Below are positions 6,400 to 6,811 of a stretch of DNA of 26,019 nt, piece by piece (position 1 is the first letter of the stretch; each line of letters begins with the position of its first letter). The DNA comes from a bacterium (GTDB lineage Bacteria > Patescibacteriota > JAUYIX01). Under the pieces are notes generated by a model. It saw only the letters and a list, made by a program, of their open reading frames with translations. It was not told the DNA's origin and ran no database searches. The DNA lies in assembly GCA_030688115.1 (NCBI GenBank), contig JAUYIX010000094.1:1-26019 (forward strand). Direction: 5' to 3'. A program made the translations under genes and the position numbers.

Positions 6400-6811
6400 C
6401 TACGTTTTTCCCCCGCGCGATGCGGGGGTTTCTTTTTGCAAAGTTTGTTTTTGCCAGCCGCCCAGCATGCGGCCGATCTCATCAAAGTGCTCCGACATGC
6501 GTATATATTTTTTAGTGTCCAGTGATTTAGATTCCCAGGCCACCTGCAGAAAGAACCGTAGCAAATCAAGCTTGAGTGAGGCTTTGCGTAAAAACGGTAA
6601 CTTGTACGCGCGCTCAACGCGACTGGCAACAAAGAGCGCCTCGGCAACCTCCAAAAAAAGTACGTCTACCTTTGCACCCAGCGTATAGCGCGTATCCTTA
6701 GGAAAGTTTCGTAAAAATAATCTCCACTCGTTGTAAGTCGACACGAGTTTGAGTAAAATTGGCAGCCGTAGATGTGTGTGTGTGTGTGTGTGTGTGTGTG
6801 GATGCGCTCAT
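6400..6811 (-). CDS. avd: DGR accessory variability determinant (Avd/four-helix bundle); ATG 6811 out of frame across (TG)14 in this sequence
   Basis: LPILLKLVSTYNEW...FPKDTRYTLG...EIGRMLGGW motifs. The conserved LPIL segment lies upstream of the track's GTG 6744. The only nearby ATG (6811) is 67 nt from that GTG, i.e. out of frame. Confidence 0.85.
6410..6437 (+). terminator. Intrinsic terminator-like hairpin downstream of TR
   Basis: CCCCCGC-gcgat-GCGGGGG followed by TTTCTTTTT; overlaps the last codons of avd on the opposite strand. Confidence 0.65.
6731..6759 (+). promoter_or_regulatory. Putative RT promoter inside avd
   Basis: TTGTAA-N17-TAAAAT. Confidence 0.45.
6773..6800. repeat. (TG)14 dinucleotide microsatellite
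   Basis: 28 nt perfect TG repeat, read directly. Confidence 0.98.

Follow-up and report, generated by a model that had tools for sequence, protein, structure and literature searches.

A dinucleotide repeat at the 5' end of avd as a candidate translational switch in a diversity-generating retroelement of a CPR bacterium

The divergent genes for the accessory protein Avd and the reverse transcriptase (RT) of a diversity-generating retroelement (DGR) in a CPR bacterium meet at a perfect (TG)14 repeat, and the number of its units determines whether the only ATG upstream of the Avd body is in frame with that body. The reading favoured in the present work, to which a probability of roughly 0.55 is attached, is that slippage of this repeat, which is (CA)n on the avd strand, provides a translational contingency switch on avd. 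A slippery tract lies at the same place in most related loci, the avd frame beside the tract is kept open in these relatives, and the repeat has two different lengths in two assemblies, at both of which the upstream ATG is out of frame.

Results

A complete retroelement of the CPR type

The stretch of DNA that was analysed, referred to below as the window, is 26,019 nt long and is one whole contig (C54) of a 707,443-bp genome in 102 contigs which is 84% complete. It contains a complete DGR, comprising a template repeat (TR), avd, the RT gene and a target gene that bears the variable repeat (VR), with the following layout.

6269-6398, plus strand: template repeat, located by the TR/VR comparison
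6400-6765, minus strand: body of avd, a four-helix bundle (profiles, alignment, AlphaFold2 model and Foldseek)
6410-6428, plus strand, with a T-run to about 6438: terminator-like hairpin, just after the TR and inside the last avd codons of the opposite strand
6826-7845, plus strand: DGR reverse transcriptase, divergent from avd, with the start MKKQFTLSYKELISLENL
7943-8677, minus strand: target gene, with the VR at its 3' end
7947-8076, minus strand: variable repeat, the last 130 nt of the target gene, 85% identical to the TR

The 130-nt TR/VR pair differs at about 19 TR adenines and at one other position, and these adenine-specific changes in the VR imply that the DGR has been active. The RT, which matches the profiles RVT_1 (E = 1.5e-19) and group II-like RT (1.1e-37), is of the DGR type and lies beside this pair. 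The layout known as B3, in which avd is reversed between the TR and the RT, accounts for 90% of CPR DGRs (Wu et al. 2018, PMC5758913); the window likewise has the TR on the plus strand, avd on the minus strand, the RT on the plus strand and the target gene nearby, and it shares with the B3 elements the RT, the Avd fold and the adenine-specific TR/VR pair (PMC5758913). The relatives all belong to the Patescibacteria/CPR.

Some further features of the locus can be recorded here. The single TR/VR difference that does not fall on an adenine is at window position 6348, where the TR has C and the VR has T. An Rfam scan of the window returned two tRNAs only, and no match at the DGR locus. The GC-rich hairpin that follows the TR has a stem of 8 bp, and the strand opposite to it encodes the Avd tail ETPASRGGK, whose pattern "TP...GG" is kept in relatives; the 3' structure of the TR RNA and the C-terminus of Avd may be co-encoded.

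The repeat and the reading frames around it

According to Tandem Repeats Finder, the (TG)14 repeat consists of 100% matches. A census of dinucleotide repeats over the whole genome (707,443 bp) returned four of 5 units, none of 6 to 13 units and one of 14 units, namely the repeat at 6773-6800, which is far above chance expectation. The repeat is perfect, it is of hypermutable length, and its unit is not a multiple of three, as in a simple-sequence contingency locus. The genome, at 84% completeness, yielded no match to MutS domain V (PF00488); if the absence of MutS is real, it would imply greater instability and slippage of repeats. The features of the avd/RT junction that bear on the frame are listed below.

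6698-6811, minus strand: ORF of 37 aa (MSASTHTH...KLS), the putative off-state product, with stop TAA 6700-6698; it spans the possible CTG and GTG starts of avd
6772-6774, plus strand: ATG fused to the repeat, in the RT frame at n = 14 and n = 11 (MCVCV...W-MRSF...)
6773-6800: (TG)14 on the plus strand, (CA)14 on the avd strand (Tandem Repeats Finder and genome census)
6809-6811, minus strand: the sole ATG upstream of the Avd body, overlapping TGA 6810-6808
6818-6823, minus strand: TAAGGG, Shine-Dalgarno-like, 6 nt upstream of ATG 6811 and within the 14 nt that separate the start codons of avd and the RT

The avd frame on the minus strand reads AHPHTHTHTHTH-LRLPILLKL-V(GTG 6744)STYNEW, with the repeat read as HTHT..., and it is closed upstream by TGA 6810-6808, with no ATG, GTG or TTG before GTG 6744. 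The repeat lies upstream of the Avd body and after ATG 6811, no stop interrupts the avd frame between the repeat and the body, and CTG 6765 is a possible alternative start. ATG 6811 is 67 nt from GTG 6744, which places it +1 out of the avd frame at n = 14 and at n = 11; by our own count on the sequence it is in the avd frame at n = 15, 12 or 9, and at n = 15 or 12 the product would read MSAS-(TH)n-LRLPILLKL. The original prediction, which had been made from the DNA sequence of the window, had described a (TG)14 microsatellite at the 5' end of avd, a frame that holds LRLPILLKL upstream of GTG 6744 and runs through the repeat into a TGA with no ATG, a 37-aa peptide from ATG 6811 to TAA 6698-6700, and a frame restored by (TG)15 or (TG)12. 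The position, length and perfection of the repeat are borne out by Tandem Repeats Finder and the genome census, the described frame is as found, and the arithmetic of the distance, the peptide and the restoring lengths agrees with the count given above.

GGAG, AGGA and AAGG motifs are enriched 5-9 nt before ATGs in this genome. ATG 6811 is the candidate start of avd on the strength of two features, the TAAGG motif that precedes it and the homology of the MS... leader that it would initiate. In the alignments, codon CTG 6765-6763 falls on position 1 of the Avd profile and on the codon at which many relatives have a TTG start; no Shine-Dalgarno motif stands at a suitable spacing before it. Initiation at CTG codons is very weak, and it is possible that CTG 6765 supports a low level of Avd synthesis which is independent of the repeat. 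The start of avd in the deposited annotation, and in the output of Logan's gene caller, is GTG 6744.

Family and predicted fold of Avd

Two Avd profiles match the open frame: PF22296 with 52.4 bits (cut-off 40), its positions 17-106 corresponding to residues 31-121 of the frame, and NF033474 with 72.4 bits, which is under its cut-off of 80, positions 1-104 corresponding to residues 15-120. The start of both profiles falls on the L of LPILLKL, the residue encoded by CTG 6765. The AlphaFold2 model (23 homologues, pLDDT 86.9) is a four-helix bundle in which helix 1 comprises residues 16-32, beginning at P16, and a search with Foldseek matched this model to the Avd of the Bordetella phage (4dwl) and to the DGR ribonucleoproteins 8ub7 and 8ubb, with TM scores of 0.82-0.89 by target. 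When the Avd alignment was searched as a profile against solved structures, no match at the sequence level was obtained. On the evidence of PF22296, the model and Foldseek, the protein encoded beside the RT is a four-helix bundle of the bAvd type. The alignment further shows that the Avd body keeps all invariant residues of the family, which implies that avd is under selection.

The model also bears on where the protein begins. Initiation at GTG 6744 would cut 6 of the 17 residues of helix 1, and the consequence for annotation is that the start now assigned to the gene truncates the helix. The His-Thr stretch has a pLDDT below 50 and is predicted to be disordered; since the repeat would encode a disordered leader, changes in its length would be harmless to the Avd protein.

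A slippage-prone tract conserved in position among relatives

Related loci were fetched from species-representative genomes (80) and from metagenomes (80), which gave 139 non-redundant loci, and a tract was defined as a run of at least seven C or a dinucleotide repeat of at least five units upstream of the LPILQKL codon. The original prediction had suggested that homologous avd genes be surveyed for N-terminal tracts, and such a tract is present in 119 of the 139 loci (about 85%), with (CA)n among the forms found (L061, L098 and L112 included). In the genome set, a run of at least eight C occurs in the 75 nt or so that precede the LPILQKL codon in 64 of the 78 loci analysed; the background is 3 such tracts in 413 kb, or about 0.0006 per 80 nt, and the pattern in the metagenome loci is the same.

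The tract is usually poly-C, with lengths in the relatives of C6-C14. The closest homologue of the window locus (L001, 63% identity) has an ATG followed by (TC)7 in frame, MSLSLSAETYPQAN-LPILQKL, and the next homologue (L002) has a C10 run just before a TTG start. The dinucleotide variants found at this place in the fetched loci are as follows.

L001: (TC)7
L061: (CA)8
L098: (CA)8
L112: (CA)18
L017: C6(TC)4

The lengths of the tracts differ between sister loci on the RT tree, and (CA)n arose at least at two separate places on it; the tree is a quick and poorly resolved one, which supports only this minimum of two origins. The place of the tract is conserved and its motif is interchangeable, which argues for selection on slipperiness and not on a sequence-specific RNA or DNA element.

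Several of the fetched loci (L017, L035, L042, L045, L053, L057, L061, L067, L076, L077 and L079) come from bins labelled Gammaproteobacteria, Bdellovibrionales or Methanosarcinales. The presence of a CPR-type cassette in these bins probably reflects errors of binning or labelling rather than transfers.

Start codons and frames in relatives

Between the tract and the codon that aligns with CTG 6765, referred to here as the L codon, the avd frame of the relatives contains no stop in 458 triplets, whereas the other two frames contain 21 in 1,038, distributed over 19 locus-frame cases. About 9 stops would be expected in the avd frame (P about 1e-4), and this frame is thus maintained without stops as far as the tract. 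An ATG from which the frame is open up to the tract is present at 117 of the 119 loci. The frame of this upstream ATG relative to avd is evenly spread (41:42:34), about one third of the ATGs being in frame; such a spread is predicted by free switching and is predicted equally by a tract that is non-coding.

At the L codon itself, TTG accounts for 52 of 109 Leu codons, compared with 16% in the avd bodies, which is an approximately threefold enrichment (p = 2e-14; L003-L163), and this implies that many relatives can probably start there too, downstream of the tract. The enrichment suggests that many relatives have a second start that does not depend on the tract, and possibly two isoforms of Avd. 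At 68 of the 119 loci, the L position is occupied by a codon that is not a start codon (TTA, CTA, ATT, CTC and others), and 46 of these 68 are also without an upstream ATG in frame; as assembled, these 46 loci would make no full-length Avd from a canonical start.

The six loci with dinucleotide tracts, the window included, each possess an upstream ATG and lack a canonical start codon at the L position. This ATG shares the avd frame in four (L001, L098 with MSEPHTHTHGT-LPII, L112 and L017) and +1 out of frame in two (the window and L061). A canonical start at the L codon is found in 0 of 5 dinucleotide loci versus 51 of 114 poly-C loci, a difference which, at p of about 0.05 by a rough estimate, is suggestive only.

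In many loci (L005-L018 and others), a conserved ATG of the avd strand lies about 35-60 nt upstream of the tract and is read on the opposite strand as a His codon (CAT) close to codon 7 of the RT (MKIQLSH), so that the starts of avd and the RT are head-to-head and overlapping in many relatives. The window is without this ATG and has TAG-GGT in its place.

These counts bear on the chief alternative to a coding role for the tract, in which the tract would be a non-coding leader or promoter element and Avd would start at CTG 6765, or at GTG 6744, whatever the value of n; the repeat would be situated in the 5' leader, or in the overlapping control region that the divergent avd and RT share, and its tuning of transcription or translation would come from the length of the leader, from an unstructured CA-rich leader or from occlusion by a small upstream ORF, and not from the frame. 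The alternative draws on the coincidence of the L codon with position 1 of both Avd profiles, on the presence of TTG or GTG at that codon in 45% of the poly-C relatives, with TTG strongly enriched, on the many database homologues annotated from MPILQKL, and on the even spread of the upstream ATG frames. It is nevertheless judged unlikely, since CTG is a very weak start and in the window has no spaced Shine-Dalgarno motif, since more than half of the tract-bearing relatives (the 68 of 119 counted above) have at the L position a codon from which translation does not canonically begin, and since a leader would not need the stop-free stretch that is specific to the avd frame between the tract and the L codon. 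The original prediction had itself named synthesis of functional Avd from GTG 6744 or CTG 6765, regardless of the repeat, as the outcome that would count against it; CTG 6765 aligns with the enriched TTG start of the relatives, and a start at GTG 6744 would cut into helix 1. For the window, the reading in which the tract lies within the coding leader of avd is the better one.

The reverse transcriptase side of the junction

In the alignment, the RT start MKKQFTLSYKELISLENL at 6826 coincides with those of relatives, such as MKKKFAGKYEDIISLENL in L001. The first in-frame ATG of the RT in the relatives is 13-25 nt after the tract, and together with the alignment of ATG 6826 this is the reason for which the RT is taken here to be independent of the repeat. 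An RT with an N-terminal extension through the repeat was considered as a general rule and was ruled out, an in-frame RT ATG upstream of the tract being present in 21 of 113 relatives only.

The repeat might instead belong to the RT of the window in particular, which would then start at ATG 6772 with a Cys-Val leader, so that lengths of n = 2 mod 3 would be selected or the RT itself would be switched. At both observed lengths, 14 and 11 units, ATG 6772 shares the RT frame, a promoter-like sequence at 6731-6759 on the plus strand would start an RNA a few bases before this ATG, and the second DGR of the genome, on contig C26, has no ATG after its tract. Two further in-frame ATGs of the RT are nevertheless found just past the repeat, of which ATG 6826 aligns with the N-termini of the relatives, none of the other (CA)n loci is among the 21 with an in-frame ATG upstream of the tract, and two alleles would share a frame by chance in 1 of 3 cases. 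A role of the repeat in the RT is therefore regarded as improbable, and the ATG fused to the repeat, with the Cys-Val reading that would follow from it, as probably fortuitous.

The promoter-like sequence is the one sigma-70-like pair that was detected, and it lies wholly outside the repeat and scores no better than shuffled controls. It would put (UG)n in the RT leader, a point in favour of the non-coding role considered in the previous section; against that role, the repeat is outside the -35/-10 elements of any predicted promoter and the sole site is at chance level. On the minus strand upstream of ATG 6811, the scan detected no sigma-70-like promoter that could serve avd, though CPR promoters may differ from the consensus. 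Phase variation through the length of a promoter spacer was rejected as a mechanism, the repeat being flanked by no predicted pair of -35/-10 hexamers, again with the qualification that CPR promoters may differ from the consensus used.

The second DGR of this genome (C26 = L165:1051-2446) has an avd with a TTG start (MPILHK...), a C7 run before it and an upstream ATG shifted by +1 from the avd frame. In its RT, GGT takes the place of the MKIQL ATG of relatives; the RT frame can be followed upstream through the G-run without a stop, and the closest ATG upstream is shifted by +1 relative to it. The RT of this second element may depend on the tract.

Repeat-length polymorphism

The groundwater run SRR13727534, which is probably the source sample, has been assembled independently by Logan, and its contigs, rather than raw reads, were compared with the window. 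The relevant contig was retrieved through the RT that it encodes, which is 355 aa long compared with 357 aa for the window ORF from ATG 6772. Over the part that spans 6369-7300 there are no base differences and 6 letters are missing: the Logan assembly has (CA)11 where the window has (CA)14, and the two are otherwise identical over 1,602 nt. The number of repeat units thus varies between identical flanks, in two alleles that both come from assemblies. At k = 31, the path with 11 units could not have been built from reads with 14 units, and we infer from this that both alleles are present in the reads. The locus was not found in the other two runs of the study.

The alleles of 14 and 11 units differ by 6 nt, and both are off with respect to ATG 6811. 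As a separate approach to length variation, near-identical public loci were compared, and this was discarded: five pairs with 100%-identical flanks have tracts of equal length, and they are probably the same assemblies deposited twice.

These lengths also bear on the view that the repeat has no function, being a neutral microsatellite, a drifting repeat in a decaying avd that has lost its start and belongs to a DGR no longer active, or a length produced by assembly. Neither allele has a canonical in-frame start and the comparison involves two assemblies only, as this view would have it; but the avd body retains all invariant residues, the RT, TR, VR and target gene are intact, a tract occupies the same place in about 85% of the 139 relatives compared with the 0.0006 or so expected per 80 nt, and two independent assemblies agree in everything except the number of units. 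Absence of function is accordingly considered very improbable.

The original prediction had proposed that slipped-strand phase variation turns the DGR on and off, and had held that a fixed in-frame length would speak for an assembly error. The length is not fixed, the two assemblies having 14 and 11 units, and both lengths are out of frame. The part of the proposal that stands consists of the position of the repeat, the open frame, the occurrence of in-frame and out-of-frame forms among the relatives and the variation in length; alternation between on and off is a part that the locus does not display, both of its alleles being off, and the use of ATG 6811 is putative.

Discussion

Avd and the RT are both required for cDNA synthesis in the Bordetella element. 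The abstract of a preprint mentions cDNA synthesis by bRT together with an accessory partner (10.1101/2023.10.23.563531). The Bordetella DGR has been rebuilt in a laboratory strain (PMC12875486). On the reading preferred here, (CA)n would be a hypermutable simple-sequence repeat in a short, disordered leader of Avd that begins at ATG 6811, and slipped-strand mispairing during replication would change n in steps of 2 nt. Where n = 0 mod 3 (15, 12, 9), ATG 6811 would be in frame and would give the full-length protein, MSAS-(TH)n-LR plus the four-helix bundle; at any other n, including 14 and 11, it would yield the 37-aa peptide, and the ribosomes of the off state would run over CTG 6765 and GTG 6744, suppressing weak initiation at these codons and leaving little or no functional Avd. 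With Avd an obligatory partner of the RT, the tract would constitute a heritable and reversible gate on VR hypermutation and mutagenic retrohoming. We infer both the loss of Avd in the off state and its effect on mutagenesis. The tract of the window would be the local version of one that is found in most CPR-type DGRs with the order TR-(avd)-RT, where it is usually poly-C and sometimes (CA)n or (TC)n.

In oipA, sabA and hopZ of Helicobacter pylori, CT repeats in the 5' coding region produce translational phase variation. The window resembles these genes in having a perfect dinucleotide repeat directly after a candidate start codon, in a putative dispensable leader, where changes in the number of units would shift the frame, and in having relatives in both in-frame (on) and out-of-frame (off) states. 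It differs from them in that the gene that would be gated is the accessory subunit of a retroelement that makes diversity and is not a surface antigen, in that the host, a CPR bacterium from groundwater, is free-living or episymbiotic and not a host-adapted pathogen, and in that the type of the DGR tract is interchangeable with poly-C across the clade. Promoter-spacer phase variation is known from the (TA)n between the divergent promoters of Haemophilus influenzae hifA/hifB and from the poly-G of Neisseria meningitidis porA. As in these systems, the repeat of the window lies in the very short interval that separates two divergent genes; unlike them, it has no recognisable flanking -35/-10 elements, and the adjoining avd frame is kept open, which argues for a coding rather than a spacing mechanism.

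Contingency loci with poly-G or poly-C tracts in Neisseria, Campylobacter, Haemophilus and Bordetella are among the subjects of several papers (PMC8355987, PMC5084427, PMC1891110, PMC2831843). Most relatives of the window likewise have C8-C13 at the position of the tract, whereas the tract of the window is (CA)n, and the switching of DGR tracts is a prediction from sequence. A literature search for links between DGRs and repeats or phase variation returned no description of a repeat at the avd/RT junction; the word "homopolymer" has no occurrence in PMC5758913, and contingency loci appear in the introduction of one DGR paper only as a contrast (PMC3521204). Translational phase variation at simple repeats is a classical kind of mechanism; what is new is the gene that would be gated, together with the conservation across the clade.

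A broader proposition is that the DGRs of CPR bacteria are themselves phase-variable and that the tract is kept by selection for its mutability, in a two-tier form of bet-hedging in which a contingency locus is placed over a mutator. The chances of this proposition being correct are put at about even. Selection for mutability as such would explain the exchange of poly-C, (CA)n and (TC)n for one another at a single position.

How cells restrain the mutagenesis of DGRs is a question in the field, in which a theory preprint considers rates of activation and deactivation for DGRs (10.64898/2026.02.18.706561), and a repeat switch on avd, heritable and stochastic in its action, would, if true, be a concrete mechanism for such restraint. 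A distance of 1.2 kb separates the repeat from the VR, short enough for a single molecule to cover both, which makes the window a good and directly testable case. If the switch is real, it would be widespread in the CPR bacteria, which are rich in DGRs, and its state could be told from the sequence by itself; metagenomes could be scored for on and off alleles and the outcome correlated with the diversity of the VR; and each lineage would throw off both DGR-on and DGR-off cells.
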